Of a stretch of DNA of 64,000 bases, positions 13,973 to 33,350 are shown one piece after another (the stretch's first letter is position 1; every line of letters starts with the position of its first letter). Where the stretch lies: assembly GCA_035649175.1 (NCBI GenBank), contig DASRKB010000237.1, positions 676-64,675 on the forward strand, written 5' to 3'. Both the position numbers and the translations under genes were made by a program. A model generated the notes under the pieces. It saw only the letters and a list, made by a program, of their open reading frames with translations. It searched no databases and was not told where the DNA came from. This stretch comes from Burkholderiales bacterium (lineage in GTDB: Bacteria; Pseudomonadota; Gammaproteobacteria; Burkholderiales; SG8-39).

Positions 13973-14895
13973 AAATCGCGATTGTTGGAACCGGAGCCAT
14001 GGGCTCGGTGTATGCCGGGCTCTTCGCCTCCGCGGGCCACGAAGTCTGGGCGATCGACGCCTGGCTCGATCATGTCGAGGCGATGAGGAAGAACGGACTT
14101 CGCCTCGAAGGCGCCTCTGGTGACCGCACGGTAAAGGTTCACGCCACGACCGATGCAAAGGAGGCCGGCCCCTGCGACCTGGTCGTCCTCGCCACGAAGG
14201 CGATGCACGTCTCCCAGGCCGCTTCTTCTTTGAAACCTTTGCTGAAGCCCGACACACCCGTTCTTTCGATCCAGAACGGCCTCGGCGGGCCCGAGACGGC
14301 CGCTTCCGTCCTGGGGAAAGACAAGGTCATGGTCGGCGTCGTCGGCGGCTTTGGCGCTTCCATCAAGGCGCCGGGCCACGCGCACCACAACGGCATGGAG
14401 CTCGTGCGCCTGGGCGAGTTTGGCGGTCCCATCACGCCGCGGCTGAAGAAGGTGGAAGACGCCTGGAAAGGCGCGGGCTTCAAGGTGAAGCTGTTCGACG
14501 ACATCGACCAGCTCGTCTGGGAGAAGCTGATCTGCAACTGTGCCTACTCCGGCCCCTGCGGCCTCGCGGAGGGCACCATCGGGGAGGTGATGGCCGACCC
14601 CGACCTCTCGGCGATCTCAGCGGCTTGCGCGAGCGAAGGCTTTGCCGTGGCGAAGAAGAAAGGCGTAAAGCTCGGCTTCGACGACCCGGTGGCCTACGTG
14701 CGCGAGTTCGGCTCCAAGATTCCCAGCGCACGGCCCTCCGTGCTTCTGGATCTGCTGCTGAAGAAGAAGTCCGAAATCGACGTCATCAACGGCTCCATCC
14801 CGCGCGAGGCGAAGAAGCTCGGCATGGAGGCGCCAGTCAACGACACCGTCACCCGGCTCGTGCGCGCCAAGGAGCGGCGGCTGGGCTGCACCTAG
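13969..14895 (+). CDS. 2-dehydropantoate 2-reductase family (ApbA/PanE-like) oxidoreductase, 308 aa
   Basis: C-terminal part of track ORF 13198..14895, from the GTG at 13969 ([27 protein letters not shown]..., a GxGxxG Rossmann motif). GTGA overlap with the thiolase stop. The physiological substrate is not inferable. Confidence 0.8.
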
Positions 14896-14910
14896 AGAAA
14901 GGCATTCGTC

Positions 14911-15966
14911 ATGGCGAGATACGCGAACATCTGCGAAACCGTCGGCAACACGCCGGTCGTGAAGATCGGCAAGCTGGCGCCGGCCGGTGTGGACCTCCAC
15001 GTAAAGATCGAGGCGTTCAACCCGCTCGGCTCGGTGAAGGACCGCCTGGCGCTCGGGGTGATCGAGGACGCGGAGCGCACCGGCAAGCTCAAGCCCGGGC
15101 AGACGGTGATCGAGGCGACAAGCGGCAACACCGGTATCGGCCTCGCCATGGTCTGCGCGCAGAAGGGCTACCCGCTCGTCGTCACCATGGCCGAGAGCTT
15201 CAGCGTCGAGCGGCGCAAGCTCATGCGCTTCCTCGGCGCCAAGGTGGTGATCACCCCCGCCGCAGAGCGAGCGACCGGCATGGTGAAGAAGGCCATCGAG
15301 CTTGCCCAGGCCAACGGCTGGTTCCTCACCCGGCAGTTCGAGAACGAGGCGAACGCCGACTACCACTCGCGCACCACCGCCCAGGAGATCGTGCGGGACT
15401 TTCAGGGACAGCGCCTCGACTACTGGGTGACGGGCTTCGGCACCGGCGGCACGCTGAAGGGCGTGGCGCGCGTGCTCGCCAAGGAGCGGCCGGAGACGAA
15501 GATCGTCGTCTGCGAGCCCGCCGACGCCCCGATGCTCACCAACGGCGCCGTGCAGGAGCGCAACCCCGACGGCACGCCGGCGAAGGGAAACGCCTCCTGG
15601 AAGCCGCACCCGATGCAGGGCTGGAGCCCCGACTTCGTGCCCAAGCTCACCGGAGACGCGGTCGACATGAAGGTGATCCACAAGGTGCTCACGGTCACCG
15701 GACCCGACGCCATGCGCTGCTCGAAGGATCTCGCGCAGAAGGAGGGCATCTTCGTCGGCATCACCGGCGGCGGCACCTTTGCCGCGGCGCTCCAGGTATG
15801 CAAGGAAGCGCCGAAGGGCTCGTCGATCCTCTGCATGCTGCCCGACACCGGCGAGCGCTATCTTTCCACGCCGCTTTTTGCCGATGTTCCGGCCGACATG
15901 ACCGAGGAAGAGCTCGCCATCATGCGCTCGACCCCGAGCTGCCACCTGCCGCCGAAGGCCAGCTAG
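14911..15966 (+). CDS. cysK: cysteine synthase A / O-acetylserine sulfhydrylase family (PLP-dependent), 351 aa
   Basis: Track ORF 14911..15966. NTPVVKI...EAFNPLGSVKDRLALGVI (PLP lysine motif), EATSGNTGIGLA, LPDTGERYLSTPLF. It has a C-terminal tail of about 35 aa. Its stop overlaps the convergent kinase stop. Confidence 0.88.
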   Translation: MARYANICETVGNTPVVKIGKLAPAGVDLHVKIEAFNPLGSVKDRLALGVIEDAERTGKLKPGQTVIEATSGNTGIGLAMVCAQKGYPLVVTMAESFSVERRKLMRFLGAKVVITPAAERATGMVKKAIELAQANGWFLTRQFENEANADYHSRTTAQEIVRDFQGQRLDYWVTGFGTGGTLKGVARVLAKERPETKIVVCEPADAPMLTNGAVQERNPDGTPAKGNASWKPHPMQGWSPDFVPKLTGDAVDMKVIHKVLTVTGPDAMRCSKDLAQKEGIFVGITGGGTFAAALQVCKEAPKGSSILCMLPDTGERYLSTPLFADVPADMTEEELAIMRSTPSCHLPPKAS

Positions 15967-18900
15967 CGAAGCGGCAGCTTCACCGTAAAGGTCGAGCCCT
16001 TGCCGGGCTCGCTCTCGAGCGCAATCTCGCCGCCGTGCAGCTCGACCAGGCGCTTGGTCAGGGCAAGCCCGAGCCCGGTGCCCTCGGCCTTGCGGGTGTA
16101 GTCGGCGCCGACCTGCTTGAACTCCTCGAACACCGCCGGCTGGTCCTCCGCCGCGATGCCGACACCGGTGTCCTTCACCGCGATCTCCACCTTGTCGGTA
16201 TCGAGCTTCGCGACCACGTCCACCCTTCCGCCATCGGGCGTGAACTTCACGGCGTTGGAGAGCAGGTTGAGCAGGATCTGCTTCACCTTGCGCTCGTCGG
16301 CCTCGAAGCCGCCGAGCCGCGGATCGATCTGCATCCCGAGCTGAATGCCGTGGCGCTGTGCGCGCTCGCGCACCAGCGTCATGGCGTTCGAGATAGCGCT
16401 TGGCAGGTGGAAGCTGGAAAGCTCGAGCTCCATGCGCCCCGCCTCGATCTTCGAGAGGTCGAGGATGTCGTTGATGAGCGAGAGCAGGTGCCGGCCCGAC
16501 TCGTGGATATCCTTCAGGTACTCGACCTGCTTCTCGTTCACTTCGCCGAACATCCTCTCGAGGAGCACCTCGGAGAAGCCGATGATGGCGTTGAGCGGCG
16601 TCCTCAGCTCGTGCGACATGTTGGCGAGGAAGTCCGACTTGTGCTTGTTCGCCACCTCGAGCTGCGCGCTCTTCTCCTGGATCTCGCGGAAGAGCCGCGC
16701 GTTCTGGATCGCGATCACCGCCTGATCGGCGAAAGTGCGCAGCTGCGCGACCTGCTTGTCCGTGAAAGGGCCCGACTGCGCGCGCGCCACCCAGATCGCG
16801 CCGATCCCCCTGCCCTCGAAGAGCATGGGCGCGAAGACGATGGCGCGAACGCCAAGGGTGCGGGATCCCGCCACCACCCCTGGCGGCACGCCCGGCGCCT
16901 CGATATCCGGGAAGTGCGCAATCGCGGCGTTGAGGATGGCCCAGCCCGTGCCGCTGTCGCGGGTCAACGGCAACGGATAGATTCTCTTCAGCCGCTCGCC
17001 TTCCGGACCGTGGTAGGCGACCAGCCGCACCGTGTCGCCGTCGGCCACTGTCACCCCGACCAGGTCGCCCTCGAAAAGTCGCTCGCAGCTCGTGAGAATC
17101 TTGTCGAAGACCGGCTTGGTGTCGGCGATCGAGCCGGAGATCGCGCCGAGCACTTCCGCAGAAGCCTTCTGCTGCTCGAGCGCCTCCTTCGTCTCGTTGA
17201 ACAGGCGCACGTTCTCGATGGCGATTACCGCCTGGTCGGCGAACGTGCGCATCAGCGCGAGCTGGGTCTCGGTGAAGGGACGCGCCTCGGCGCGCCGGAT
17301 CATGATCGAGCCGATCGCCGTCCCCTCACGTATGAGCGGCGTGGCGAGCAGCGTGCGGTAGCCGAACTCCCGCGCGATCTCGCTGCCGCGCGGGTACTCG
17401 CTCGCCTCGGCCTGCAGGTCCTCGACGTGGATCTGCCTCCCTTCAAGGATGGCTCTCCCGGTGACGAGCTCCCGGGAGAGCGGGCGCGTGCCACCGACGC
17501 CGACGTTGGGCAGGCTGCCATGGTGCGCGACGAAACGAACCGAGTCGCCCTCACGCAGCTGGATGATCGCGTCCGTCGCCTCGCACAACCGCGCCGCCGT
17601 AGCCGCGACCGCGTCCAGCACCGGCTGGATATTCGTCGGCGAGCCGCTGATCACCTTGAGGATGTCCGCGGTGGCCGTCTGCCGCTCGAGCGCCTCCTTC
17701 GTCTCGTTGAAGAGCCGCACGTTCTCGATGGCGATCACCGCCTGGTCTGCGAAAGTGGTGACCAAGCGAATCTGCGCGTCGGCGAAGGGCCTGACCTCGC
17801 GGCGGTAGATCACCACGGCGCCGATCACCCGGCCGTCCTTCAGCAGCGGCACGGCGAAGAAGGTCCGCGCCTTCAGCTTGTCGACCGTCAACACGCGCAG
17901 CCGGTCCCCCTTGGCCGTGTCGCTGTCGGCAAGCAAATCGGGGATGTGCACCGGGCGGCGCAACCGCACGAGCTTGGCGAAGCCCGTGTGCGGCCCCGCT
18001 TCCACCCGCCGGAACGCCTCGTACGCGCTCGGGTCGTCGCCCTTGTAGCTCACCATGGTCCAGCTTGCGTCCGGCTCCTGCAGGAAGAGCCCACCGAGGT
18101 GCGCGTCGCAGAGCCGGATCGCCTTGTCGAGGATCGTTTCGAATACCGGCTGGACGTCGGTCGGCGACTCGGAGATCACCCGCAGGATGTCCGCCGTCGC
18201 GGTCTGCCGCTCGAGCGCCTCATTCGTCTCGTTGAAAAGGCGCACGTTCTCGATGGCAATGGCCGCCTGGTCGGCGAACGTCTGGAGGAGCTCCACCTGG
18301 CCGGCAGGCGCATTCCCGGGTTCACGCCACGCGACCACCAGGGCGCCCAACGGCTTGCCACCCCGCAGCATCGGCGCGCCGAGCATGCGGCGCCAGTGTC
18401 CGGTGGCCACGGAATCCGGGTCGTAGTGCTCGTCTGCCGCGGAATCCGGGATCTGCACGACGGCCTTGGTGAGAATCGTGCGGCCGCTGAGCAGGTGAGG
18501 GTCGGGCGGAGACGGGTAGACCTTCGAGAAGTAATCGAGCGCCGCCTGCGGCCAATTGTGCGTGGCGGTCATGTGAACGAGCTTGCCGTCGAAGGAAAAC
18601 ACCGCAGCGAGCTCCGCGTCGCATAGCGTCACCGCGCTCCTCAGGATCGCGTTGAACACCGGCTTCACGTCGGCCGGCGAGCCGGCGATCACCTTCAGGA
18701 CCTCGCTCGTGGCCGTCTGGCGCTCAAGCGCCTCCTTCGTCTCGTTGAAGAGGCGCACGTTCTCGATGGCGATCACCGCCTGTGCGGCGAAGGTCCTGAG
18801 CAGGTCCTCATGCCGCTGCAGGATCGCCCCGGGCTGCGCCCATCCCACGGTGATGACGCCGATCGCCCGGCCCTCGCGCATCAGCGGCACGCCCAGGATG

Positions 18901-21900
18901 CGTCGATAGCGCAGCGCTGCCCCGAGCTCCTTGTCGTATCCCGTATCCGCGTGCGTATCCTCGATCCGTACGTCCGCGCCATCCAGGATGACTCGCCCCA
19001 CCACGCGCGAGCGGTCCGGCGCCGCCGGATACGACTGCTTCAGACGCTCGAGGAGCGCGTCGGGCCATCCATGGGACGCCGCCCAGTGGATGCGCTCCCC
19101 GTCGAAGCGGAACACGTTGGCGTAGACCGCGTCGCAAAGCCGGGTCGCGTTGCGTACGATCGCCTCGAACACCGGTCCCGTATCGGTCGGCGTGCTCGAA
19201 ATCACGTGCAGGATCTCGGCGGTGGCGGTCTGCTTCTCTAACGCCTCCTTCGTCTCGTTGAACAGGCGCGCGTTCTCGATCGCGATCACCGCCTGGTCGG
19301 CGAAGCTCCGGATGAGGTCCACTTCCCGTTCATGGAATGGCTTCGCCTCGGCATGCGCAACGCTGACCGCGCCGACGACCTTGCCCTGGAAGAGCATCGG
19401 CGTGAAGATGACTGAGTTGAAATCGAAGTCGCGGGCGAACTGCGCGGTAGCGCTCGGGGCCTCTGGATTGTCGCGCACCGGCGTGATCTGGACGGTGCGC
19501 TTGGACAGCATGGCGCGCCCTCCGATTGTCGTATCGTCGAGAGGCCGCGGATAGCGGGAGCGCAAGCCATCGATTTCCGGCCCGCCGTCCGCCGCCGGCA
19601 TCTCCACGATGTCGCCGCGCAGTATCTGCACGACCGCGTACCGGGCGCCGAACAGCCGACGCAGAATGCGCACGATGCTTTCGAAGACCGGCTGCGCATC
19701 GGTCATCGATCCGCTGATCGTAGAGAGGACCTCCGCAGTCGCCTTCTGCCACTCGAGCGCCTCCTTTGTCTCGTTGAAGAGCCGCACGTTCTCGATCGCG
19801 ATGACCGCCTGGTCCGCGAAGGTCTGGAGCAGGTCCTCATGCTCGCGGGGCACCGGGCCAGCCTCTCCCCAGGTGACGACGATGACACCGATCGGCGATC
19901 CGCCACGCATCAGCGGGACGGCGACGATGCGGCGCCATCCACCGGCCTTCGCGTGGCGCTGGTCGTATTCGGGATCGGCCAACGCGTCCTCCAGCCGCAC
20001 CACCGTCCCGGCGAGGATCGCCCTGCCCGCCATCTGCGACCGGTTGGGTGCCATGGGATAGCTCTCGCTCAACAGATCGCGATACCGAGCGCTGTCCAGG
20101 CTCGTGGCGACAAAGTGCAGCTTCTCGCCGTCGTAGCGAAAGACGTTGGCGAGTAGGCCGTTGCACAGCCGCGCGGCGTGGCGAACCATGGCGTCGAAGA
20201 CGGGTTGCACGTTCGTCTGCGACCGGGCGATCGTCTGCAGGATCTCGCTCGTCGCCGTCTGCCGTTCGAGTGTCTCCTTCGTCTCGTTGAACAGCCGAAC
20301 GTTCTCGATCGCAATGACGGCCTGGTCCGCGAAGGTCTCGAGAAGCTCGATCTGGTGGTTGCTGAACGTCCCGGGCTCGCGGCGCGTGACGGCGATGACG
20401 CCGGTGGCAACGCCCTCGCGCAACATCGGTACGGCGAGCAGGCTGCGCGAGCCGCGTTCGCGCGCGCCTTTGCGGTACTCGTCGGAGTACGCGGGATCGG
20501 TTTCCGCGTCGACGATCCAGGCCGGTTTGCCGGTGAGCACCGCCTTGCCGAACGCGCCTTGGCCCGTAATCTGCGTCGGGAAAAGCTTCCGGAGCGATTC
20601 GGCGCCGGCCTCGCGGAATGCGGTGTGCGCGACAAGATGCAGCATGTCTCCGACACGCCGAGCGACCGCCGCCGAGTTCGCGGCAAACAACTTCTGCGCG
20701 CTTCGCGCGATCGCGTCGAACACCGGCTGTGTATCGGCGGGCGAGCCCGCGATGACTTTCAGGATCTCGGCGGTGGCCGTCTGCCGCTCGAGAGCCTCCT
20801 TGGTCTCGTTGAAGAGACGCACGTTCTCGATGGCGATGACCGCCTGATTGGCGAAAGTGCGAAGCAGCTCGATCTGCTTCGGCGTGTATTGCCTGTTCTC
20901 GGCACCTTCGATGACGTTGATCGTCCCGATGCCTCTGCCATCACGAATCAACGGCGCGCACAGAACATTGCGGAAGCCGAAGCCAGCGGCGAGCGCTTTG
21001 GTGCGATCGGCGAGATCCATGTCCGCCCGCACATCGGGCACGTAGACAACCTCGCCGCTGAGAATCGCGCGCCCTGACACGCTGTGCGCGTTGAGCGGCA
21101 AGGGAAAGAGCTTCTCGTATTGGTCACGACTGCGCAGGCCTTGCTTCGTCGCGAACGCGGCAAGTTCGATGTTGCCCTCCCGCACCAGCGTCACCACCAC
21201 GCTCATCCCGCCGAAAAGATGCACGCAGCTCTGCGCTATCGAGTCGAACACCGGCTGAACGTCGCGCGGCGAGCCCGCGATGACGCCTAGGATGTCGCTC
21301 GTGGCCGTCTGCCGCTCCAGCGCCTCCCTCGTCTCGTTGAACAGCCGGGCGTTCTCGATGGCGATCACCGCCTGCGCGGCAAAAGCCTCGAACAAGGCGA
21401 GCTCCGTGGCGCCGAAGGGCTTGCCCTCCGGGCGCGTCGTGCCGATGGTGCCGATCGCCTTGCCGTCGAGCATGAGCGGCGCGTGCAGCATGGCGTTGTA
21501 GGCAAAGCTCTTCGCGAGCGCCACCGCCTGCGGGGTGGCCTTCGGGTTGCCGATGATCGGTGCGAGCTGCGAGACCCTGCCCGAGCGCAGCGCCTTGCCT
21601 GTGAATCCTTTCCAGTCGACACGCTGCGGGAAGGAGTCGCGGAACGCCCGGAACACATCGGCGTGCCGCTTCTCGAACTGCACGTCGCCCTTGGCGGCGC
21701 CCAGATGCAGCTCGTCGCCCTTGAGCAGGAACACCGCAGCGTAGCGTGTGCTGAAGAGGCGCAGCACGTTTCTCACGATCGCCTCGAAAACGGGCCGGGC
21801 CTCGCCAGTGGAGCGGCTGAGCGACGCGAGGATCTCGGCGGTGGCCGCCTGGTACCGCAGCGCCTGGTCGCGCTCGGCGAGCGCGCGCCGCAGGGGCGAG

Positions 21901-21956
21901 GCGGCTGGCCGCTTATTCCGGGGAGGGGTCTTGCCGGGTTTACGCCGCGCGGCCAT
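15963..21956 (-). CDS. soluble sensor histidine kinase: ten tandem GAF modules + HisKA + HATPase_c, 1997 aa
   Basis: Track ORF 15963..21956. There is no TM segment. Ten units each end in [11 protein letters not shown](V/A)[16 protein letters not shown](A/S)EILKVI..., and the last ends [14 protein letters not shown]. Then come the H-box [21 protein letters not shown], N-box [13 protein letters not shown], G1 VKDTGVGI and G2 [18 protein letters not shown]. Confidence 0.93.
   Translation of the reverse strand: [1997 protein letters not shown]
16573..16691 (-). repeat. 119-nt segment identical to 25891..26009 (H-box/DHp helix-1 coding region of paralogous kinases)
   Basis: By eye, gagaagccgatgatggcgttgagcggcgtcctcagctcgtgcgacatgttggcgaggaagtccgacttgtgcttgttcgccacctcgagctgcgcgctcttctcctggatctcgcggaa occurs unchanged at both loci. 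Flanking sequence is similar but diverged. Confidence 0.8.
16689..21884 (-). repeat. intragenic tandem array of ten GAF + signalling-helix units, period 510-528 bp
   Basis: The Phe codon of the conserved RLF(N/R)E junction recurs at about 16689, 17199, 17709, 18234, 18747, 19260, 19776, 20289, 20811 and 21339. All spacings are multiples of 3. About 75 nt around each junction (gagcgcctccttcgtctcgttgaa..cgcacgttctcgatggcgatcaccgcctggtc) is strongly conserved at DNA level. The outer boundaries are approximate. Confidence 0.85.
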
Positions 21957-21983
21957 CCGGGAAAACGAGGCCTGTCCCTGTTT

Positions 21984-23012
21984 TCAGGTCTTGAAGAGGA
22001 AAGCAGGCACGGGCTTGGAGAAGCCCTTGAGCTCGAGGGGCCCGAGCTCGTCGAACTGGAAGGCGCCGTCGAGCGCGGCCATGGTCTTGCGATCGACGAG
22101 GATCTGGCCGGCCTTCGCCTCGCCGCACAGGCGCGCGGCGAGGTTGGTGACGTTGCCGATGGCGGCGTAGTCCAGGCGCCCCTCGAAGCCGATGGCGCCG
22201 AGCGTTGCATAGCCCTGCGCGATGCCCACCCCGAGGCCCAGCTCGAAGCCGCTCCGCTTGTGCCAGTGCTGGCTGATGGGCACGAACGCCTCATGCACGG
22301 CGAGCGCGGTGCGCAGCGCATGCTCGGCGGGCTTCTCGATCGGCAGCGGGTCGTTGAAAAAGACCATCACCGCGTCGCCGGCGAAGCGCTCGAGCGTGCC
22401 TTGGTGCTCGAGCACGATCTTGCCGAGCGCGCCGTGGAAGCCGCGCAGCAGCTCCATCACTTCCTCGGGCTCAGCGGAGTCCGTGAAAGCGGTGAAGCCG
22501 CGCAGATCGAAGAACTCGACGGTGATCTCGCGCCGGTGCGTCTTAAGCACCTCCTCGCCCTTGCCGGCGGCGATCGCCTCGGCGAGCTGCGGCGAAAAGA
22601 AGGCTTTCAGGCGTCCAAGGCGCTCGTCCTGCAGCCCCTTGATCCGAAGGAGCGAGCGCACGCGCGCGAAGAGCTCGGCCTGGTTGACGGGCTTGGACAG
22701 GAAGTCATCGGCGCCCGCCTCGATGCCCTTCACACGCTCCTGGTTCGGGTCGAGCGAGGTCGCCAGCACCACCGGCAGGAGCGCCGTGGCGGGGTTCTCG
22801 CGGATCTTGCGGCACACCTCGTAGCCGTTGATGCCCGGCATCATGATGTCGAGCAGCACCAGGTCCGGCGGCTGCGCTGCGATCGCCTCCAGCGCCTGCT
22901 CACCGCTCGAGGCTCTGGTGACCTCGTAGCCCTTCGCGCCCAGCAGATCGGCGAAGAGCTTGAGGTTCTGCGGCGTGTCGTCGACGACGAGGATGCGCTG
23001 CTTCGCGCTCAC
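21984..23012 (-). CDS. response regulator receiver fused to class III nucleotidyl (adenylate/guanylate-type) cyclase, 342 aa
   Basis: Track ORF 21984..23012 with a GTG start and a GTGA overlap with the upstream stop. REC is ILVVDDTPQN...PDLVLLDIMMPGINGYE...ADDFLSKP. A coiled linker follows. CHD is HRREITVEFFDLRGFTAFTD...GTLERFAGDAVMVFF...DYAAIGNVTNLAARL. Confidence 0.9.
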   Translation of the reverse strand: MSAKQRILVVDDTPQNLKLFADLLGAKGYEVTRASSGEQALEAIAAQPPDLVLLDIMMPGINGYEVCRKIRENPATALLPVVLATSLDPNQERVKGIEAGADDFLSKPVNQAELFARVRSLLRIKGLQDERLGRLKAFFSPQLAEAIAAGKGEEVLKTHRREITVEFFDLRGFTAFTDSAEPEEVMELLRGFHGALGKIVLEHQGTLERFAGDAVMVFFNDPLPIEKPAEHALRTALAVHEAFVPISQHWHKRSGFELGLGVGIAQGYATLGAIGFEGRLDYAAIGNVTNLAARLCGEAKAGQILVDRKTMAALDGAFQFDELGPLELKGFSKPVPAFLFKT

Positions 23013-23383
23013 GCCTTGGCCGCCTCGACGAGGCGCTTCACCGTGTCCAGGAACTCCTTCAGGTTGATCGGCTTGCTGACGAAGGCGTCGAAGCCCGCGG
23101 CGGTGATCTGGCTGCGGTCGGTCGGCGTCACCGAGGCGGTGAGCGCGACGACTGGAATCCTCGCCGTGTTCGGGTCGGCGCGGATCTGCCTGAAGGCCTC
23201 GATGCCGTTGATGCCGGGAAGCTGGATGTCCATCAGCACCAGGTCCGGCGCCTTTTCCTTCGCGAGCTTCACGCCCTCCTCGCCCGTCACGGCCTCGAGC
23301 GTTCCGTAGCCCTTCGCCTGGAGCACATCCCGCGCGAGCTTCATGTTCTTCTCGTTGTCTTCGACGATCAGCACTGTGCTCAT
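23009..23383 (-). CDS. single-domain response regulator (CheY/DivK-like receiver), 124 aa
   Basis: Track ORF 23009..23383. VLIVEDNEKNMKLARDVL...PDLVLMDIQLPGINGIE...VVALTASV...GFDAFVSKPI. ATGA overlap with the upstream kinase stop. Confidence 0.92.
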   Translation of the reverse strand: MSTVLIVEDNEKNMKLARDVLQAKGYGTLEAVTGEEGVKLAKEKAPDLVLMDIQLPGINGIEAFRQIRADPNTARIPVVALTASVTPTDRSQITAAGFDAFVSKPINLKEFLDTVKRLVEAAKA

Positions 23384-25278
23384 TGGTCCCTCGGTGACTG
23401 TAGCGGTAGGGTTATCGTGAATGCCGAGCCCTTGCCGGGCGCGCTCTCGACGCGGATCGTGCCGCCGTGCAGCTCGACGAAGCGCTTGGTGAGCACGAGG
23501 CCAAGGCCGGTGCCTTCCGCCTTGCGAGTGCTGTCGCGCCCCACCTGCCGGAACTCCTGAAACAGCGCGGCCTGATCCTCGGGCGTCATGCCGGCACCGG
23601 TATCGCGCACCGTGATCTCGGCCGCCTCGTCCCGCAGCCGCGCCGATACGATGACCGTGCCGCCTTCGGGGGTGAACTTCACCGCGTTGGAGAGCAGGTT
23701 CAGCATGATCTGCTTGACCTTGCGCTCGTCGCCGATGACGCTTCCGATGCCCGGCGGGATGTCGATCTGCAGTCGCACGCCATGCCGCTGCGCCCGCTCC
23801 TTGACAAGCGAGGCGGCCCGCTCGATCGCCGTGGCAAGGGCGAACTCCGAGAGATCGAGTTCCATTCGCCCGGCCTCGATCTTGGACAGGTCGAGGACGT
23901 CGTTGATCAGGGAAAGCAGATGCTGTCCGGACTCGAGAATATCCGTCACGTACTCGGCCTGCTTGGCATTGAGCTCGCCGAACATACCCTCCTTAAGGAC
24001 CTCCGAGAACCCGATGATGGCGTTGAGCGGCGTTCTCAGCTCGTGCGACATATTGGCGAGGAACTGGCTCTTCTCTCGGCTTGCCGCCTCAGCCTGCTCC
24101 CGCGCGCGCTGCAGATCGAGCTCGGCGAGCTTGCGACGCGTGACATCGGTGATGGCTCCGATCATCTTGATCGCACGCCCATGCGGATCTCTCAAGGCGA
24201 TGGCGCGGTCGACGATCCACCGGTATCCACCGTCCGTGGCGGCGATGCGGTACTCGTGCTCGAGCCTCGGAGTCAACCGCTTGAAGTGCGCGCCAATCGC
24301 GCGGCGGTAGCCGTCGAGGTCGTCCGGATGCACCAACTCGGTCCAGACCCTGGCGGTCTGCTTCCCGGCAGGCCGGAAGAACTCCCTGGCATTCTCGGTG
24401 ATGAGAAGCTCATCGGTTGCGATGTCCCATTCGTAGATGCCTTCCGTGGCTACGCTCGTCGCGGTCGAATAGCGCTCCTCGCTCTGCCGCAGCGCTTCCT
24501 CGGTCCGCTTGAGCCGGCTGATGTCGCCCGTGGAGCCGATCATGCGCACCGCGCGCCCGGCGGCGTCGCGCTGCGCGATTCCGTGCTGGCGTGCCCAGCG
24601 CCAGCTCCCGTCCTCGGCGCGGTAACGGAACTCGCACTCGAAGCGCTCGGTCCCGCCTTTGAAATGAGCGATCAGTGCGGCGTCATAGCGCGTCCTGTCC
24701 TCGTCATGTATGCGTTGGTGCCAGTCGGCCGCCGTGCGCATATGCTCGGGGGACAGGCCGAGCATATGGATTACGCGCTCGGAGTAGTAGATGCTGTTGT
24801 TGGCAATATCCCAGTCGTAGATGCCCTCGCGCACGGCCTGCAGGGCGAGGTCGTAACGCTCCTCGCTGCGCCGCAGCGCCTCCTCGGTCTTCTTGAACTC
24901 CGTGATGTCGCCGATCGATCCGACCACGCGCGCTGCACGGCCGCGTGCGTCGCGCAAGGCGATGCCGTGCTGCCGGCACCAGCGCCATTCTCCGCTGCGC
25001 GCTCGATAGCGATAATCGCATTCGATGCGCGGCGTTCGCGCCTCGACATGCGCGCGGAACACGTCCATGTAGTGAGCGACATCCTCGGCATGAATGAGAC
25101 TGCGCCAGTCCTTTGCCGTCTGCATGAACGCCCGGTCCACATCCAGGACGTCGTAGACGCGCTCGGAGTAGTAGATGTGGTCCTCTGCCACGTCGTAGTC
25201 GTAGATTGCCTCGTTGATCGCTCGCATGGCGAGCGCATAGCGCTCTTCCGACTCGCGCAGCTGGCTGAGATCGCTCAT
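23380..25278 (-). CDS. cytoplasmic sensor histidine kinase: three tandem PAS domains + HisKA + HATPase_c, 632 aa
   Basis: Track ORF 23380..25278. Three units of about 124 aa each begin SEERY(A/D/S)LA...EGIYDWDI and end GRA.R..GS.GDI(T/S). Then come the H-box [21 protein letters not shown] and the HATPase motifs. Confidence 0.92.
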   Translation of the reverse strand: [632 protein letters not shown]

Positions 25279-28211
25279 GACCTCCCCGTCGGAAAGACCA
25301 CCGTGAAAGTGGAGCCTTTGCCGGGCGAGCTGTCGAGCCGGATGGCGCCGCCGTGCAGCTCGACGAAGCGCTTCGTCAACGCGAGTCCAAGCCCCGTGCC
25401 TTCGGCCTTGCGCTTGGAGTCGCGCCCGACCTGCTTGAACTCCTCGAACACCGACGCCTGGTCCTCGGAGGCAATGCCGATGCCCGTATCCTTCACCGCG
25501 ATCTCCACCTTGTCGGTGTCGAGCCTCGCGGCCACGTCCACCCTTCCGCCATCGGGCGTGAACTTCACGGCGTTGGAGAGCAGGTTGAGCAGGATTTGCT
25601 TGAACTTGCGCTCGTCGGCGCGCAGTTCGCCCAGGCGCGGGTCGACCTCGAGCCCGAGCGCGATGCCGTGGCGCTGCGCACGCTCGCGCACGAGCGTCAT
25701 GGCGTTGGAGAGGGCTGAGGGCAGGTCGAAGTTAGAAAGCTCGAGGTCCATGCGCCCCGCCTCGATCTTCGAGAGGTCGAGGATGTCGTTGATGAGCGAG
25801 AGCAGGTGCTTGCCCGACTCGTGGATGTCCTTGAGATAGTCGAGCTGCTTCTCGTTCACCTCGCCGAACATCCGCTCGATCAGCACCTCCGAGAAGCCGA
25901 TGATGGCGTTGAGCGGCGTCCTCAGCTCGTGCGACATGTTGGCGAGGAAGTCCGACTTGTGCTTGTTCGCCACCTCGAGCTGCGCGCTCTTCTCCTGGAT
26001 CTCGCGGAACAGGCGCACGTTCTCGATGGCAATCACCGCCTGATCGGCGAAAACGCGCACAAGCTCGATCTGCTTCGCTGTGAAGGGCCGGGCCTCACCG
26101 CTGCGGGAGAGCGTGAGCACGCCGATCGGCTCGCCGTCGCGCAGCATCGGCACAGCGAGAATGCTGCGGTAGTTGCCGGCCTGCATGATATCGTGGCGCC
26201 CGTATTGCGGGTCGGCGGCGACGTCGGGAATGTGCACCGTCACTCCGTCGAGCACGGCGCGCCCGGTGGCAGAGGCACGGTCGAGCCTGATCGGCGCGCG
26301 GTCGAACACCCCACGCGTCGCGTCGCCCGGCTGCTGCGCTTCGTCGGCCACGGCGAAGGCCATCGGCACGTACTCGGCCCGCTCGTTGGGCCGGAAGAGG
26401 AAGCCGCGATCGGCCTCGCAGAGCTTGCGCGCCTTGGCGAGCACGATCTCGAGTACGGGCTGCAGGTCGAACGTCGTGCGGCTGATCACTTTCAGGATCT
26501 CGGAGGTCGCGGTCTGCTGCTCGAGCGACTCCTTGGTCTCGTTGAAGAGCCGCACGTTCTCGATGGCGATCACCGCCTGGTCGGCGAAGGTGCGCAGCAG
26601 GGCCATCTGCTTGTCGCTCAGCGGCCCGGGCAGCACACGGCTCACGCTGATGGCGCCGATGGCCGTCCCGCCGCGCAGCATGGGTATGATGGTCATGGCG
26701 CGCGAGCCGCTATCGATGAAGTTCCGAAGCCCCGGCGCGATCGAGGGCTCGTCATGGAGCAGCGCGTCATGCACGTCGATCACGCGGTGGTCGAGGATGG
26801 CAGTCGAGTGCATGTACTCGCGGGTCAGCGGGACGGGAAAGCGCGAGCGTATCGCCTCGGCTTCCGCGGGCTCGCGGGCGGCGACCGCGGCGGCGCGCAC
26901 GTGCGCGCCCTCGGGGAGAGCGACCATCACGGTCGCCTCTGGGAAAAGCTTCAGCCCGCTCTGCACGATGGCCTCGAACACCGGCTGCGTGTCGGTGGTC
27001 GAGCTGCTGATGACCTTGAGGATCTCCGCCGTCGCCGTCTGCTGCTCGAGCGCCTCCTGCAGCTCCGCGGTGCGCGCCTCGACCTTCCTCTCCAGGCCGG
27101 CGTAGGACTCCCGCAGCCGGGCGCTCATCTGGTTGAACTCGTCGGCAAGCGCCTCGAGCTCGTCGCCGGTCTTCACCTCGATTTTCTGCTCGAGCTCGCC
27201 CGCCCCGATGCGCGCGGCGCCGTCGCGCAGGGTGCTGATCGGGCGCGCCATGCTGCGCGCGAGCCACATGGCCGCGAAAGCCGAGAGGAGAAGGCCGGCG
27301 AAGAGGAGGAGGATCGTGCGCAGGATCGCGGCGTCGAGGGACGCGAAGACTTCGGAGACCGGCTGCTCGGCGAAGACTCTCCACCCCAGCGGGTCGATCG
27401 GCGCATAGGCCGTCAGGACCCGGCCCCCGCCGAGGTCCTGGGAAAGCATGGCGGGCGAGCCGCCGGGATCGGGGGCGAGCGAGCGCTTCACGTGCTCGAG
27501 GCTCGAGAGGTCGGTCTTGCGCAGCACGAGCCCGATGTCGGGATCGGCCACGAGGTGGCCGGTCGAGTCAACCACGTAGGCCTTGCCCTTCTCGCCGATG
27601 CGAATGCGGGTCAGGACGTCCCAGATGAACTTGAGGTTGATCTCGCCCACGGCGACCGGGCCGCCTGGGGTGGAGCGGGTGGCCATGACGATGTAGGGCT
27701 CGGTGTCCTTGCGGAAATAGACCTCCCCGAACCACGTCTGCCCGGGTTTCGCGTCCCGGAAAGCCGGCTCCTGCGAGCGATCGCGGCCGCTGTCCACGAC
27801 GTTCATCGAGAGCCGCGACACGAACAGCTGCTCGCGCCCCGCGCGGTCGATGTAGTAGATGTCCGTGACGGCCTCGGCGATACGCAGGAGCTTCTCGAAC
27901 TCGGTCTTGCGCTGCGCCGCGCCCTCGGCCGCGAGCTGGTGAAGCGCCGCGAACTCGAGCTGCCGGTCGATCTGGCGCACGAACTGCTCGATGCGCGCGG
28001 CCGCCGCGCCGGCTTTCTCGCGCTGCAGGCTGGCGAGCGCGGCTTTATTTTCCTCGTAGGAAAAGTACAGGCCGATGCCGCCCGAGATCACGAGCGTACC
28101 GCAGACCAGCGCGAGGATGAGGAGGAGGTACTTGCGGAACAACCGCCCGCGGTGCAGTCGCCGCGCCGCGGCGTGCTCCCCAATCGCGAGATCCGTCGGC
28201 TTCAGGCGCAT
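25275..28211 (-). CDS. membrane sensor histidine kinase: TM - periplasmic Cache-like domain - TM - HAMP - 2 GAF - HisKA - HATPase_c, 978 aa
   Basis: Track ORF 25275..28211. TM1 is [23 protein letters not shown], followed by a periplasmic region of about 250 aa. TM2 is [19 protein letters not shown]. HAMP is [39 protein letters not shown]. Two GAF units carry the same linkers as the 10-GAF kinase. The transmitter is nearly identical to that of 15963..21956. Confidence 0.9.
   Translation of the reverse strand: [978 protein letters not shown]
25891..26009 (-). repeat. 119-nt segment identical to 16573..16691
   Basis: See the partner feature. It encodes the end of the last signalling helix and the H-box. 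Confidence 0.8.
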
Positions 28212-28221
28212 CTCCTCGCGG

Positions 28222-29193
28222 CTACTCTACCACCCGGTCGGCGCGCAGCAGCACGGCCTGCGGAATGGAGATGCGCAGCGCCTTCGCGGTGCGCATGTTG
28301 ATCACGAGCTCGAGCTGCTGGGGCGAGGTGATGGGCAGTTCCGCCGGCGAGGCGCCCGCCAGGATGCGGTCGACATAGCGGGCGGCGCCGCGGAAGCTCG
28401 CCGCCAGGTCCGGCCCATAGGTCGCGAGCGCGCCGGGCGGTGCGAACTCCCCGAGCGGCGAGAGCGTCGGGACGCCGGCGGAGAAGGCCGCCTGCACGAG
28501 CTCCTCGCGCAGCCCGAAGAGCATCGCGTCGGCCGATACGACCAGCGCGTCGGCCTGCAGCGATGCGAGCCTCTCCGGCAGCGCGTCGACGTCCCAGCGG
28601 GCCCGCAGCACCACGGGCACGAGCTCCAGCCCCATCGAGCGCGCGGCGCGCGTGGCGGCCGCTTGGTAGGACGCCGCGGCGGTCCGGTCCGGGTTGACGG
28701 CGAACGCGATGCGCCGCGCCTTGGGCATGAGCACGTGCAAAACCTCGATGACCCGGGCGTGCTGACCCTCGCCCAGGCTTGCCATGCCGGTGACATTGCC
28801 GCCCGGCCGTGCGAGGGTCCGCGCAAGGCCGTCGCCCACCGGATCGATGCCGGACACGATGACGATCGGAATCGTGTCGGTCCTCGCCCTCACGAACCCG
28901 GCCGTGTCCGCGGTGTCCGCGACGATGACGGCGCAGCCCAGCGCGATCAGCTCGTCGGCGATGAAAGGGATGCGGGCCCGATTGCGCTCGTAGTAGCGGG
29001 CGACGAGCGTGTAATGGCGGCCTTCCTCGTAGCCGAGCTCGAGCAAGCCCTCGACGAACTCGCGCCCGAAGCGGTCATCAGTCACGTGGACGAATCCGAC
29101 GCGGTAGGGTCCGCGCGCTTGCTGGGCACGCGCGACCGGCGGCATGGGCGCGGCGACCAGCGCCAGCAGGGCGACGAAGGCCCGCCGCTTCAT
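28222..29193 (-). CDS. periplasmic substrate-binding protein, ABC_sub_bind (PF04392-like) family, 323 aa
   Basis: Track ORF 28222..29193. Signal peptide MKRRAFVALLALVAAPMPPVARA, then VGFVH...NVTGM...ELPI..PQQLELVINMRTAKALRISIPQAVLLRADRVVE, the characteristic C-terminus of this family. No cognate permease or ATPase is adjacent. Confidence 0.8.
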   Translation of the reverse strand: MKRRAFVALLALVAAPMPPVARAQQARGPYRVGFVHVTDDRFGREFVEGLLELGYEEGRHYTLVARYYERNRARIPFIADELIALGCAVIVADTADTAGFVRARTDTIPIVIVSGIDPVGDGLARTLARPGGNVTGMASLGEGQHARVIEVLHVLMPKARRIAFAVNPDRTAAASYQAAATRAARSMGLELVPVVLRARWDVDALPERLASLQADALVVSADAMLFGLREELVQAAFSAGVPTLSPLGEFAPPGALATYGPDLAASFRGAARYVDRILAGASPAELPITSPQQLELVINMRTAKALRISIPQAVLLRADRVVE

Positions 29194-30143
29194 TCGATGA
29201 CGCGGTCGGCGCGCAGGATCAGCGCCGGCGGAATCGCGATGCCGAGGGCGCGTGCAGTGCGCAGGTTGATGGCAAGCTCGAACTTGGTCGGACGCTCGAA
29301 GGGCAGCTCCGAGACCTTGGCGCCCTTCAGGAGGCGGTCCACGTACTGCGCGACACGTCGCCAGATCGCGGCATGGTCGGCGAAGTAGGAGAGCAGCGCG
29401 CCGGCACGGACCTCGGCGCTCGTGAGCATCATCGCCGGGATGCGCCGCTCGATCGAAAGGCGCACTGTGACGTCGGACAACGTTAATGCCTGCCCGGCAA
29501 GCCGCAGTACCGCATCGGCGCGCCAGGCGGCCGCCTCCGCAAAGGCATCTTGGATGTCCTGCTCGGTGCGCGCCGGAAAGTAGCGCATCTCCACTTGGAG
29601 GACGGCCCCCGCCTGCTCCAGGTCGCGTATCTGCGGCTTGACGATCGGCTCGTCGGGGTGAATCAGGCCCGCGACACGCCGAGCTACAGGTAGCGCCTGC
29701 TTCAGTACCTCCAGGCGCTTGGCGACGATCTCGCCCGCCATATTGGTGACGCCGGTGATGTTGCCTTCCGGGCGGGAGATGTTTCGCACGCCGACCAGGC
29801 CTGGCTCGGAGACGACGCCGACGACGATGGGGACCACCTTGGTGGCCGCGGCGGCGGCGCGTCCACCCGGCGTGTTCGCTGCGACGAGAACGTCTACGCC
29901 GGAGTCCACCAGACCCTTGGCGAGCCCCGGCAGGGCCGAGAGCTTTCCGGCGGCTGACCGGACTTCCAGCTCGGCTTGGACGAGGCGGCTCAGCTCGTCA
30001 CGGAAGGCGGCTTCGTCCCACTGTACCTCGGCAGGGACAAGCACACCGACCCGCGGCCGGCGCACCTGCGCCCGTACCGCTACGGGAGCGAGCGCGAGCC
30101 CGCCGAGAATCCTCAGAATCCGCCGCCTGCCCCCCCGCATCAC
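29190..30143 (-). CDS. periplasmic substrate-binding protein, ABC_sub_bind (PF04392-like) family, paralog, about 317 aa
   Basis: Track ORF 29190..30143, starting at GTG 30143 or ATG 30140. It has a signal peptide, then RVGVLVP...NITGVTN...[40 protein letters not shown]. ATGA overlap with the downstream paralog. Confidence 0.8.
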   Translation of the reverse strand: [317 protein letters not shown]

Positions 30144-31053: not shown

Positions 31054-32268
31054 CTAACGTGAAGGCTGGGCGATCGGGGCCTGATCTCGAAGGAGCGGAC
31101 GTTCGTCGATCGGGAGGTGAATCAGCGCGGCGATGACCCCGAGCGCGGCGGCGACCATCCACGCGAGGTCGTAGGACCCGGTGCGGTCGAAGAGCCAGCC
31201 GCCCGCCCAGGCGCCGAGGAAGCTGCCGAACTGGTGGCTGAAGAACACGAAGCCCGAGAGCATGGCGAGGTGGCGCACGCCGAAGATCTGCGCCACCACC
31301 GCGTTGGTGAGCGGCACCGTGCCGAGCCACAGGAACCCCATCAGAACGCCGAATGCCATCGCGCTGACCGTACTGAGCGGCAGGGCCATCAGCATCACGA
31401 TCACCACCGCACGCGAGAAGTAAAGGAGCGACAGCAGGTTCTTCTTCAGGTAGCGGCTGCCGAGCCATCCGGCGGCGAAGCTGCCGAAGACGTTGAACAG
31501 GCCGATGAGCGCGAGCGCCATCATGCCGTCGCGCGCGGTGAGGCCGCGGTCCATGAAGTACGAGGGCAGGTGCGAGCCAATGAAGACGACCTGGAAGCCG
31601 CACACGAAGTAGCCCGCGACAAGGAGCCAGAAGCTGCGCTGTGCGCGCGCCTCGGCGATCGCCTCGCCGACCGTCTGCTTGTGCGCCTGCGGAGCGGCGT
31701 GGGGACTCTCCATGAGCGCCGCGGAAAGCGGCGCCATGACGAAGGCCGCGCCGGCCAGCACCACCAGCGCGAAGGCCCAACCGCTCGCCGAGATCAGGGT
31801 CTGCGCGCCGGGAAGGAGCGCGAACTGGCCGAAGGAGGCGACTGCGCCGGCGACGCCGAGCGCCATGGTGCGCTTCTCCGGAGGCGTGTGCCGCCCGATG
31901 ACGCCGTAGACGATGCTGAACGTCGTGCCGGAGAGCCCGAGACCCACGAGCAGGCCCGCGGAGAAGTAGAGCTCGCCCGGCGTGCCCGCCGTGGACATGA
32001 GCCAGAGGCCCGCACCATAGAGGAGCGCACCTCCGAGCACGACGCGCCCGGCGCCGAAGCGGTCGGCGATCATCCCGGAGAAGGGCTGCGCGAACCCCCA
32101 GATCAGGTTCTGGGCCGCAATCGCCAACGAAAACACCTCGCGGCCCCACCCGCGGTCCACGGACATCGGCTGCAGGAAAAGCCCGAAGCCGTGACGGATG
32201 CCCAGAGCGAAGAACAGCACGAGGCTCCCGAAGACGAGCACCGTCCCTGGGGTCAGGCGAAGCTTCAT
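31054..32268 (-). CDS. MFS transporter (oxalate/formate-antiporter-like monocarboxylate type), 404 aa
   Basis: C-terminal part of track ORF 31054..32418, from the ATG at 32268 (MKLRLTPGTVLVFGSLVLFFALGIRHGFGLFLQPMS...). It has 12 predicted hydrophobic spans. ATGA overlap with the upstream cyclase stop. Confidence 0.85.
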   Translation of the reverse strand: MKLRLTPGTVLVFGSLVLFFALGIRHGFGLFLQPMSVDRGWGREVFSLAIAAQNLIWGFAQPFSGMIADRFGAGRVVLGGALLYGAGLWLMSTAGTPGELYFSAGLLVGLGLSGTTFSIVYGVIGRHTPPEKRTMALGVAGAVASFGQFALLPGAQTLISASGWAFALVVLAGAAFVMAPLSAALMESPHAAPQAHKQTVGEAIAEARAQRSFWLLVAGYFVCGFQVVFIGSHLPSYFMDRGLTARDGMMALALIGLFNVFGSFAAGWLGSRYLKKNLLSLLYFSRAVVIVMLMALPLSTVSAMAFGVLMGFLWLGTVPLTNAVVAQIFGVRHLAMLSGFVFFSHQFGSFLGAWAGGWLFDRTGSYDLAWMVAAALGVIAALIHLPIDERPLLRDQAPIAQPSR

Positions 32269-33350
32269 TTCGTAATGGACTTGAGGCGGAAGGCCGGCAC
32301 GGGATGCTTGAAGCCGCGCAGCTCGAGCGGGCCCACCAGCTCGGTCACCGTCATGTGCGCGACGTCGTGCTCGGTTTGCGCGTCCAGGAGAATCTCGCCT
32401 GCGTTCGCCGCGCCACACAGGCGCGCCGCGAGGTTGGGCACGTTGCCGATCGCGGCATATTCCCAGCGTTGCTCGAAGCCGATGATCCCGAGGGTTGCCT
32501 CGCCTTGCGCGATACCGATCCCCAGGCCGACCTCGTGCCCGAGCCTTTCCCAGGCCGCGGAGATCGGCGTGAAGGCCTTCTGCAGGGCGAGCGCCATGCG
32601 CACCGCGCGCGCGGCCGGCTTCTCGACCGGCAACGGGTCATTGAAGAAGATCATGACGCCGTCCCCGGCGAAGTGCTCGAGCGTGCCGCCGAACTCGTCG
32701 ACCGTTCGCCCGAGCGTGGCGTGGTAGGAGCGCAAGAGATCCATCACCTCGTCCGGGTCGGCGCGGTCGGTGAAAGCGGTGAATCCGCGCAGGTCGAGGA
32801 ATACCGCCGTGATCTCGCGCCGGTGGGGCTCGAGCATCCCCTCACCGCCCGCGACGATCGCCTCGGCCACCGGGCGGGAGAAGAAGCGCTTGAGCCGCCC
32901 CAGGCGCTCGAGCTGCGCCACCTGCTCGGCCACGCGCTCCTCGAGCCTCGCGTTCAGCACCTTGAGCTCGTCCTGAAGCGACTTCACGCGCAGGAGCGCC
33001 TTCACGCGAGCGAAGAGCTCCTCCCAGTTGACCGGCTTGGAGATGAAGTCGTCCGCGCCCACTTCCAGCCCCTTGATGCGCTCCGCTTGGGCTTCGAGCG
33101 AGGTCACCAGCACCACCGGAAGAAGCGCCGTCGCGGCGTCCGCGCGCAGCCGCCGGCACAACTCGTAGCCGTCGATGCCCGGCATCAAGATGTCGGAGAC
33201 CACCAGGTCCGGCCGCGCGACGCTCACGCGCTCGAGCGCGTGCGCGCCATCCTGCGCGGTGAGCACGTCGTACCCGCGTGCCTTCAGCACGCCGGCCATC
33301 ATCTCCACGCTGGCGCGCTGGTCGTCGACGACCAAGATGCGGGCAGTCAC
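32265..33350 (-). CDS. response regulator receiver fused to class III nucleotidyl cyclase (paralog of 21984..23012), 361 aa
   Basis: C-terminal part of track ORF 32265..33674, from the GTG at 33350 (VTARILVVDDQRASV...PDLVVSDILMPGIDGYE...). CHD is HRREITAVFLDLRGFTAFTD...GTLEHFAGDGVMIFF...EYAAIGNVPNLAARL. GTGA overlap with the ADH stop. Its coiled-coil linker is about 19 aa longer than in the paralog. Confidence 0.88.
   Translation of the reverse strand: MTARILVVDDQRASVEMMAGVLKARGYDVLTAQDGAHALERVSVARPDLVVSDILMPGIDGYELCRRLRADAATALLPVVLVTSLEAQAERIKGLEVGADDFISKPVNWEELFARVKALLRVKSLQDELKVLNARLEERVAEQVAQLERLGRLKRFFSRPVAEAIVAGGEGMLEPHRREITAVFLDLRGFTAFTDRADPDEVMDLLRSYHATLGRTVDEFGGTLEHFAGDGVMIFFNDPLPVEKPAARAVRMALALQKAFTPISAAWERLGHEVGLGIGIAQGEATLGIIGFEQRWEYAAIGNVPNLAARLCGAANAGEILLDAQTEHDVAHMTVTELVGPLELRGFKHPVPAFRLKSITK

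Follow-up and report, generated by a model that had tools for sequence, protein, structure and literature searches.

Ten GAF cassettes in one soluble histidine kinase of an uncultured Burkholderiales bacterium: a probable mosaic of exchangeable sensor units on helical joints

Introduction

GAF-containing histidine kinases are ordinary signalling proteins, and named examples carry one or two GAF domains. How a single kinase comes to carry ten of them in a row, and what such an array might do, is the question raised by a gene in the DNA of an uncultured Burkholderiales bacterium. The window, as the whole stretch analysed is called here, comprises 64,000 nucleotides (nt) with a G+C content of about 68% (assembly GCA_035649175.1, contig DASRKB010000237.1, positions 676-64,675, forward strand). 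On its minus strand, at 15963-21956, lies an ATG-started open reading frame (ORF) of 1997 codons for a soluble ten-GAF histidine kinase, named K10 in what follows; K2 denotes the neighbouring membrane kinase at 25275-28211. The original prediction for this DNA regarded ten GAF domains as extreme and the locus as a hotspot of amplification of sensor modules, the junctions of which could serve unequal recombination. The comparisons described here lead to a partly different reading, which as a whole we hold to be probable: K10 would be a multi-input cytoplasmic kinase with a helical spine, a shared output through a REC protein and a REC-cyclase, and a mosaic of swappable cassettes.

Domain Architecture and the Poly-GAF Class

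Each of three Pfam profiles recognises ten GAF stretches in K10, with scores far above the cut-offs of 22-29 bits (GAF_2, PF13185, 496 bits, 6e-151; GAF, PF01590, 478 bits, 4e-145; GAF_3, PF13492, 310 bits, 2e-93). They are followed by HisKA (PF00512, residues 1773-1840, 86 bits) and HATPase_c (PF02518, residues 1887-1996, 111 bits), and beyond GAF, HisKA and HATPase_c no domain in the Pfam scan exceeds its curated cut-off. The predicted order of ten GAF-plus-helix units ending in a HisKA/HATPase transmitter is thus borne out, both by these hidden Markov models and by the AlphaFold2 models discussed below. The transmitter (15966-16688) has the kinase boxes H, N, G1 and G2 intact (SHELRTPLN, DTGVG, GTGLGL), with the phospho-acceptor His1782 (codon 16611-16613) in the H box within the DHp domain. 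No membrane segment is found in K10 with 19-residue Kyte-Doolittle windows, the best values of 1.5-1.7 falling on GAF beta-strands, and the same scan gives two clear segments in K2 (2.4); the description of K10 as a soluble kinase of 1997 residues holds. A unit profile of 174 positions has exactly 12 copies in the window, namely ten full-length matches in K10 (207-239 bits each, with cassettes of about 172 residues) and two in K2.

Ten such units are not extreme. A full-length search with K10 gave 7,998 matches at E <= 1e-50, the best 120 of which are GAF-only kinases of 1,475-3,480 residues with 7-18 units of the K10 type, while the unit profile has 140,011 matches (E <= 0.001) among 1.84 billion representative proteins, the best 150 of them with 7-18 matched stretches each. 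As a class, poly-GAF kinases are taken here as proteins with several consecutive full-length unit-profile matches, no other domains between them and a kinase transmitter at the end, which describes K10. Besides K10, 266 proteins with 6-18 units were retrieved; at least ten units are present in 162 of the 267, so that 161 proteins other than K10 carry 10-18 units of the same type. Their sources are metagenome-assembled genomes (MAGs) of Betaproteobacteria, Burkholderiales, Methylomirabilota, Chloroflexota, Binatia and others, in some cases on megabase-scale contigs. These proteins, annotated only as ‘GAF domain-containing protein’, share with K10 the unit type, the joint between units and the same or a similar transmitter; none of those retrieved has the ten-cassette order of K10, the best overall identity being 54%. 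In the searchable literature, multi-GAF arrays were found discussed only for cyanobacteriochromes, with nothing on non-cyanobacterial poly-GAF arrays and no experimental or comparative study of the poly-GAF kinase class.

Cassette Diversity and the Age of the Array

The ten cassettes of K10 are numbered G1 to G10 from the N-terminus; among the units compared with them, labels beginning with P denote retrieved proteins and those beginning with L denote loci, P0027 being the same as L002 and P0063 the same as L003. G1 (21339-21890, residues 23-206) is of an N-terminal ‘cap’ type that stands first in most arrays carrying it, and is 70-72% identical to unit 1 of P0027/L002, P0118 and L001b. For G2 (20811-21338, residues 207-382) no counterpart above 45% was found among approximately 3,000 sampled units. 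G3 (20289-20810, residues 383-556) is 64-67% identical to P0165_u3, L117_u1 and L010_u1, G4 (19776-20288, residues 557-727) is 66% identical to P0027_u4, and G5 (19260-19775, residues 728-899) is 60-67% identical to P0029_u12, P0146_u3 and L102_u3. The closest counterpart of any cassette is that of G6 (18747-19259, residues 900-1070), 88% identical to P0165_u7. G7 (18234-18746, residues 1071-1241) is 81% identical to L003_u7 (P0063_u7), with a match at the DNA level, and 79% identical to L070_u2. G8 (17709-18233, residues 1242-1416) reaches 71% with P0109_u8 and has no counterpart above 44% in the syntenic set described below, and G9 (17199-17708, residues 1417-1586) is 82-83% identical to L002_u5 (P0027_u5), which occupies a different position in its array. 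The kinase-proximal type, G10 (16689-17198, residues 1587-1756), matches the final units of L002, L003, L070 and P0056 at 79-85% identity, with P0027_u8 the best at 85%.

These figures bear directly on the proposal that the ten units arose recently in situ, by unequal crossing-over within the gene, and are now diverging. The head-to-tail, in-frame arrangement of units of near-constant length would fit such an origin, as would the mutual closeness of G4, G6 and G7, the nearest trio at 50-55%, and a pair of same-type units at 61% in L118. Whole units of K10 are nevertheless only 31-55% identical in protein and 49-64% in DNA, synonymous differences between them are near saturation (a proportion, pS, of 0.50-0.57), and no exact repeat within the gene is longer than 29 nt; by these measures the array is old. 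Moreover, nine of the ten units (all but G2) are, at 60-88%, closer to units in other proteins than to their own paralogs, which in the joint-trimmed core are at most 49% identical, and units of the same type stand at different positions in different proteins. Tandem Repeats Finder, suggested as a check in the original prediction, reported no array in K10, since its longest period of 500 falls short of one unit and the divergence between units is too great. Recent amplification is thus largely refuted and retains very little probability, and the idea of an amplification hotspot falls with it. By sequence comparison, the K10 array is instead a mosaic of old, distinct cassette types. Such types are numerous: 186 units from syntenic loci fall into 104 clusters (single linkage at 58%), which puts the number of types in this small sample at 100 or more.

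Variation of the Locus Among Relatives

With the REC-cyclase encoded next to K10 as anchor, 160 loci were fetched. Relatives in which this protein is 81-93% identical are soil MAGs labelled Burkholderiales or Betaproteobacteria, and at syntenic loci PALP/ApbA are likewise 80-93% identical. In L002 and L003 the synteny is that of the window, with REC and REC-cyclase genes before the poly-GAF kinase and PALP, ApbA and thiolase genes after it on the other strand. The locus is hypervariable. When complete genes directly after the REC-cyclase are counted, the syntenic poly-GAF gene of these uncultured soil Burkholderiales has one unit (L126), three (L070), four (L009, L010, L093), five (L012, L014), six (L013, L102, L104), seven (L112), eight (L002, L003, L016), ten (the window, L006) or eleven (L118). 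Orthologs are thus far from universally carrying ten, as the predicted copy-number variation would have it. K2-like orthologs vary as well, from the two cassettes of the window up to five across loci (2-5 in L084, L070, L008, L010 and L111).

The manner of the change is best seen where two loci are closely related. In order of types, L003 reads 1 6 e b.. 7 10 and L070 reads 1 7 10, with 94.5-95.1% DNA identity on either side of a difference of 2,574 nt, or five cassettes. In L070 the alignments of the two flanks have 103 nt in common at the joint, and read base by base this joint follows unit 1 of L003 upstream and unit 7 of L003 downstream, the switch lying inside the conserved joint-coding stretch that includes NETK. 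Between L016 and L102 the flanks and the first and last cassettes are approximately 91% identical, with internal cassettes, six and four respectively, that are unrelated, and the units of L014 are an ordered subset of those of L118. Compared with L070 and its 1-7-10 backbone, the window carries five additional cassettes in the interval from type 1 to type 7 and a further two in that from type 7 to type 10. Window counterparts of at least 80% DNA identity in these loci are limited to the flanks, the transmitter, G10, G9, G7 and G1; there are none for G3, G4 and G5, and for G2, G6 and G8 only edges (12-30% of their length) have DNA counterparts. Exchange seems to respect cassette boundaries: none of 157 testable units in a half-unit test on a subset was chimeric, all 157 having concordant halves, and full-length hits of the unit profile outnumber partial ones by 3,424 to 170. 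Taken together, the alignments indicate that cassettes are gained, lost and swapped whole by recombination at conserved joints, so the original suggestion that the joints mediate unequal recombination and copy-number variation is upheld, with the L003/L070 crossover lying inside the joint.

Some relatives have a second or third poly-GAF kinase directly downstream, as in L006 (17836-21384) and L014 (8803-12993), and L001 has three poly-GAF kinases in a row, each after a REC gene; such downstream genes could supply cassettes for exchange within the genome. In L037, a long-read MAG contig, the orthologous genes are split into several short ORFs, which look like assembly frameshift errors rather than pseudogenes.

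Conserved Joints Between Cassettes

The joint itself has the motif FA[DAN]QA[VA]IAI[EQ]N[AV]RLF, present in ten copies in K10 at residues 192, 368, 542, 713, 885, 1056, 1227, 1402, 1572 and 1742; in ascending window coordinates, from the C-terminal copy to the N-terminal one, they are spaced by 510, 510, 525, 513, 513, 516, 513, 522 and 528 nt. The ten junction Phe coordinates originally reported, together with the 510-528 bp periodicity, match these values; they give the low-coordinate base of the second Phe codon (that of RLF), 42 nt below the first Phe. In all nine GAF-GAF joints exactly 28 residues separate RLF from PV[FL].

Pairwise DNA identity among these nine joints is 87% over 75 nt (range 80-93%) and 82% when 105 nt are taken, and the statement that joints are conserved over about 75 nt while GAF cores have diverged is therefore sound when set against the 49-64% of whole units. 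As a sign of homogenisation it does not stand. Third codon positions of the joints are only 65% identical, and where two joints have the same residue the codon is also the same in 71% of pairs, the codon usage of K10 itself predicting 60%. Gene conversion was considered as the main cause of joint conservation and rejected, as third positions are scrambled and the excess of shared codons is small (0.71 vs 0.60). Conservation of the joint DNA is mostly conservation of amino acids combined with codon bias, the G+C bias at third positions (GC3) being strong.

AlphaFold2 models, all of monomers, were built for G6-G7 with flanks, on a 23-row alignment of non-overlapping rows and homolog sub-sequences, and for G9-G10 with the transmitter. 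The former (model me8baca22384f; mean predicted local distance difference test score, pLDDT, 87.8) has joint helices at residues 2-42, 168-213 and 339-384, and the joint from G6 to G7 (18681-18818, minus strand, residues 1047-1092) is predicted as one continuous 46-residue helix. In the latter (pLDDT 78.5) a joint helix of 46 residues spans positions 147-192, and an unbroken helix of 70 residues (317-386) runs from G10 through His1782. Within the GAF cores, where pLDDT exceeds 90, the fold is a central antiparallel sheet with flanking helices, and Foldseek gives a probability of 1.00 to solved GAF structures; the best matches are helix-linked two-domain modules, with template modelling (TM) scores of 0.53-0.63 at 10-16% identity. 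The joint helices are thus predicted to be continuous and of fixed register. Of the continuous coiled-coil linkers that had been suggested as a check by AlphaFold, these monomer models yield the continuity, each modelled joint being one unbroken helix.

The label ‘signalling helix’, used in the original prediction, is apt as a description. The S-helix connects signalling domains over approximately 40 residues and has been proposed to pass on conformational change as a parallel coiled coil; it is marked by an ERT signature in the central heptad, and helical linkers between GAF domains are treated as distinct from it (PMC1592074). The likeness to the K10 joint is that of a helical connector between two signalling domains (Anantharaman, Balaji and Aravind, 2006). 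Because the K10 joint reads ALERQTAT, in which a clear ERT signature is not evident, and because inter-GAF linkers are set apart in that work, the joint is not assigned to the S-helix family. K2 does carry an ERT-like EARTAEL after its HAMP domain, resembling the S-helix. A further observation on the joint is that the NCBIfam model ‘MadS family sensor histidine kinase’ matches K10 at residues 147-217 (approximately 21306-21518), over the C-terminal part of G1 and the joint, with a whole-protein score of 173 bits under a cut-off of 500; the joint type of K10 may be shared with this named kinase family.

Reliability of the Array

Repeated joints invite a technical explanation, in which the array, or the differences in copy number between loci, would come from assemblers jumping between joints of different GAF genes. 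Public unitigs at k=31 do break at almost every joint, because joint k-mers are shared across the community, and joint bins stand at 5-100 times the depth of the unit cores (runs X1, X5, X7 and X11, window 15500-22500); joint stretches are therefore common to very many genes in the community. All loci, furthermore, come from metagenomes or MAGs. The remaining evidence speaks the other way. Words of 31 nt from the K10 gene were found in 20 runs of soil or sediment belonging to 8 studies, and four of these runs hold 97-98% of the words; in run X1 all ten units are present without differences at an even depth of approximately 15-26x, with unitigs that span the G7|G8 joint and 19768-22500. Exact repeats, at most 29 nt within the gene and at most 47 nt to the joints of K2, fall well short of the k=141 to which the ‘k141_’ names of many contigs point, and do not reach a length that would confuse an assembly with large k. 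Arrays are without exception in frame, their units intact and their flanks consistent, in about 20 independent assemblies made with different assemblers, and poly-GAF genes are also found on megabase-scale contigs. We regard an assembly artefact as highly improbable.

Known Relatives and Ligand Signatures

The nearest known modules are of three kinds. The cyclic-nucleotide phosphodiesterases PDE2A, PDE5A, PDE6 and PDE10A, together with the cyanobacterial adenylyl cyclases CyaB1 and CyaB2, carry a tandem GAF-A/GAF-B pair on a long helix that leads to the catalytic domain, and the pairs of PDE5A and PDE2A are among the Foldseek matches (3mf0, 3lfv and 3ibj, TM 0.53-0.57, and also 1ykd; 12-16% identity). 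In these proteins the helix between the GAF domains is the axis of the dimer and the path of the allosteric signal. They have two GAF domains, cyclic nucleotide monophosphate (cNMP) binding through NKFDE and a phosphodiesterase or cyclase output, whereas K10 has ten, lacks NKFDE and ends in a histidine kinase; we know of no cassette turnover in these modules. The best structural matches are phytochrome GAF-PHY modules and cyanobacteriochromes (Cph2, 4bwi, TM 0.60-0.63; Cph1, 8w26, TM 0.57), in which phytochromes share with K10 a helical spine into a histidine kinase or other output; K10 differs in lacking the Cys-His bilin motif, in its origin from an uncultured Burkholderiales bacterium rather than a cyanobacterium, and in belonging to a class with arrays of up to 18 units. 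Thirdly, DosS/DevS and DosT of Mycobacterium have two GAF domains, one of them heme-binding, directly upstream of a histidine-kinase transmitter as in K10, and the DevS and DosT GAFs are among the profile matches (4e-8 to 5e-7). K10 is distinguished from them by ten cassettes and a distinctive, highly conserved joint.

As had been noted, the NKFDE signature (NK...F...DE) is absent from all ten units of K10, the only NK dipeptides, at residues 14 and 1770, lying outside the units. The bilin Cys-His motif is absent as well, there being no CH dipeptide in K10 and eight Cys elsewhere; within the cassettes Cys is confined to RLC[DEN]A-like positions of some units. These absences weigh on the possibility of a feedback sensor, in which the GAF domains would bind cyclic AMP or GMP made by the REC-cyclase of the operon and so close a loop. 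In its favour, the nearest solved GAFs by sequence are cNMP-binding (PDE10A GAF-B, 6e-11; cGMP-specific phosphodiesterase, 2e-10; CyaB2, 7e-9), the cyclase gene lies directly upstream, and poly-GAF kinases adjoin REC-cyclases in several phyla. The similarity to phosphodiesterase GAFs is remote, however, NKFDE is absent, and residues outside the helices differ between cassette types, which argues against one common ligand; such feedback is quite unlikely.

Alternatively, the cassettes may bind no ligand at all and serve as an adjustable rod or as an oligomerisation or docking platform, their number and order drifting near-neutrally. A copy number of 1-11 at one locus and the wholesale replacement of internal cassettes between close relatives would suit such a scaffold, as would the structural nature of the residues invariant in all units (in the helices, and P/G of the sheet) and the lack of a known ligand motif. 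Same-type cassettes, on the other hand, are under purifying selection, with ratios of nonsynonymous to synonymous substitution (dN/dS) of 0.07-0.41. Conserved polar and aromatic residues that are specific to a type (such as DG...H, D..YD and W..PG in types 4, 6 and 7) are kept across proteins, for which a pure spacer would have no need, and the strict joint length favours a part in transmitting signals over spacing alone. A purely structural role therefore seems unlikely, if somewhat less so than cyclic-nucleotide feedback.

Gene Neighbourhood

Between 30143 and 15963 every gene is on the minus strand, its ends overlapping or nearly abutting those of its neighbours, in the order of two PF04392 proteins, K2, a kinase with three PAS_3 domains, REC, REC-cyclase and K10. 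The domain assignments are those of Pfam. Directly upstream of K10 is the REC-Guanylate_cyc protein, a response regulator fused to a class III nucleotidyl cyclase (21984-23012), preceded by a single-domain REC response regulator of 124 residues (23009-23383) that is kept at syntenic loci. Poly-GAF kinases have REC and REC-cyclase genes beside them in L001, L002 and dozens of further loci. The PAS_3 kinase (23380-25278) is soluble, without a membrane segment, and its three PAS_3 stretches agree with the three tandem PAS units first described; between K2 and REC this gene is present in L085 and absent in L084 and L006. K2 (25275-28211) has the order dCache_1-HAMP-GAF-GAF-HisKA-HATPase_c, its two cassettes being of the K10 unit type. 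At the head of the row stand the two PF04392 (ABC_sub_bind) solute-binding proteins (28222-29193 and 29190-30143), homologs of which also precede K2-like genes in relatives. No ABC permease or ATPase gene adjoins them, and they may present ligands to the dCache kinase K2 rather than to a transporter.

The resemblance between the transmitters of K10 and K2, as had been seen from the start, is close. They are 86% identical in both protein and DNA, far above the similarity of their GAF units, and lie 9.3 kb apart in the same orientation. A 119-nt exact match spans the boundary of the last GAF and DHp (16573-16691 = 25891-26009), with further exact matches of 64 nt (16214-16277 / 25532-25595) and 63 nt (16429-16491 / 25747-25809). 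This pattern points to a gene conversion or duplication that recently affected the output module; recombination between these direct repeats would remove the ten-GAF array in full, along with the PAS kinase and the two REC genes. The transmitter of the PAS kinase is 66-68% identical to those of K10 and K2, and K10 and K2 have the same DHp helix 1, from which that of the PAS kinase hardly differs.

Further afield, a second REC-cyclase, a protein of 469 residues, a 2Fe-2S ferredoxin-class III cyclase fusion and a PAS-GGDEF diguanylate cyclase are encoded nearby (32265-33674, 35922-37577, 42947-44791). A scan for promoters and terminators gave no signal above the shuffled expectation. No NCBIfam equivalog exceeds its curated cut-off for K10, the best being HrmK at 262 bits against 725, over the transmitter only. 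On the plus strand, an ORF of 1333 codons antisense to K10 (14625-18626) failed the GC3/GC2 filter and is taken as a by-product of high-GC codon bias rather than as a gene.

Proposed Mechanism

In the mechanism that we favour, K10 is a cytoplasmic and most likely homodimeric sensor histidine kinase of the HisKA family. The C-terminal helix of each cassette is predicted to fuse with the N-terminal helix of the next into a 46-residue helix of invariant length, the last of them running into DHp. In the dimer these helices would pair as a continuous coiled-coil spine, by analogy with phosphodiesterase GAF-A/GAF-B and phytochrome GAF-PHY modules. Every type of cassette would sense a small ligand or cue of its own and bias the spine, so that the kinase integrates many inputs into one rate of autophosphorylation. 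The REC-cyclase is the likely phosphorylation target and output. K10, K2 and the PAS kinase would all phosphorylate the same REC and REC-cyclase, a convergence that we infer from the gene order and the near-identical DHp sequences, and the outcome would be cyclic-nucleotide synthesis. Homologous recombination between joint-coding stretches of approximately 50-100 nt deletes, inserts or replaces blocks of cassettes in frame and in helical register, which is why the same locus carries 1 to 11 cassettes in related genomes.

Several points weigh against this mechanism. Confidence in the models drops to a pLDDT of 70-80 in the middle of the joints and below 50 in DHp, the latter as expected because a dimeric bundle is modelled as a monomer, and monomer models do not demonstrate a coiled-coil dimer. 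The order of units in the window is confirmed only in part, as k=31 unitigs break at joints, and most comparison loci are short-read metagenome contigs. The cassette types depend on an arbitrary threshold, that of 58% in single linkage. Sensing and integration are steps drawn from analogy, and the free variation in number and order, from 1 to 11, could mean that individual cassettes add little to the output.

A bolder view, which we put forward tentatively and with less confidence than the mechanism itself, would see poly-GAF kinases as natural plug-and-play sensors, in which a universal 46-residue adaptor helix, conserved in protein and for the most part in DNA, is both the mechanical coupling and the recombination site, and a large library of ligand-specific cassettes is reassorted by soil bacteria on the timescale of strains.

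Implications

Arrays of 10-18 non-photoreceptor GAF domains appear to be unstudied despite the 140,011 proteins matched by the unit profile. For annotators and assemblers, poly-GAF genes are to be treated as mosaic and as variable at strain level. As an instance of rapid domain shuffling in nature, the locus has a defined crossover site and involves genomes that elsewhere are 90-95% identical. It hints at a way for a single kinase to bring together many signals from the cytoplasm on a helical spine, and the joint with its cassettes may provide a ready-made adaptor and a library of compatible sensor units for the engineering of chimeric sensors. If the bolder view is true, soil bacteria would possess a multi-input kinase that can be retuned in what it senses without altering its output.

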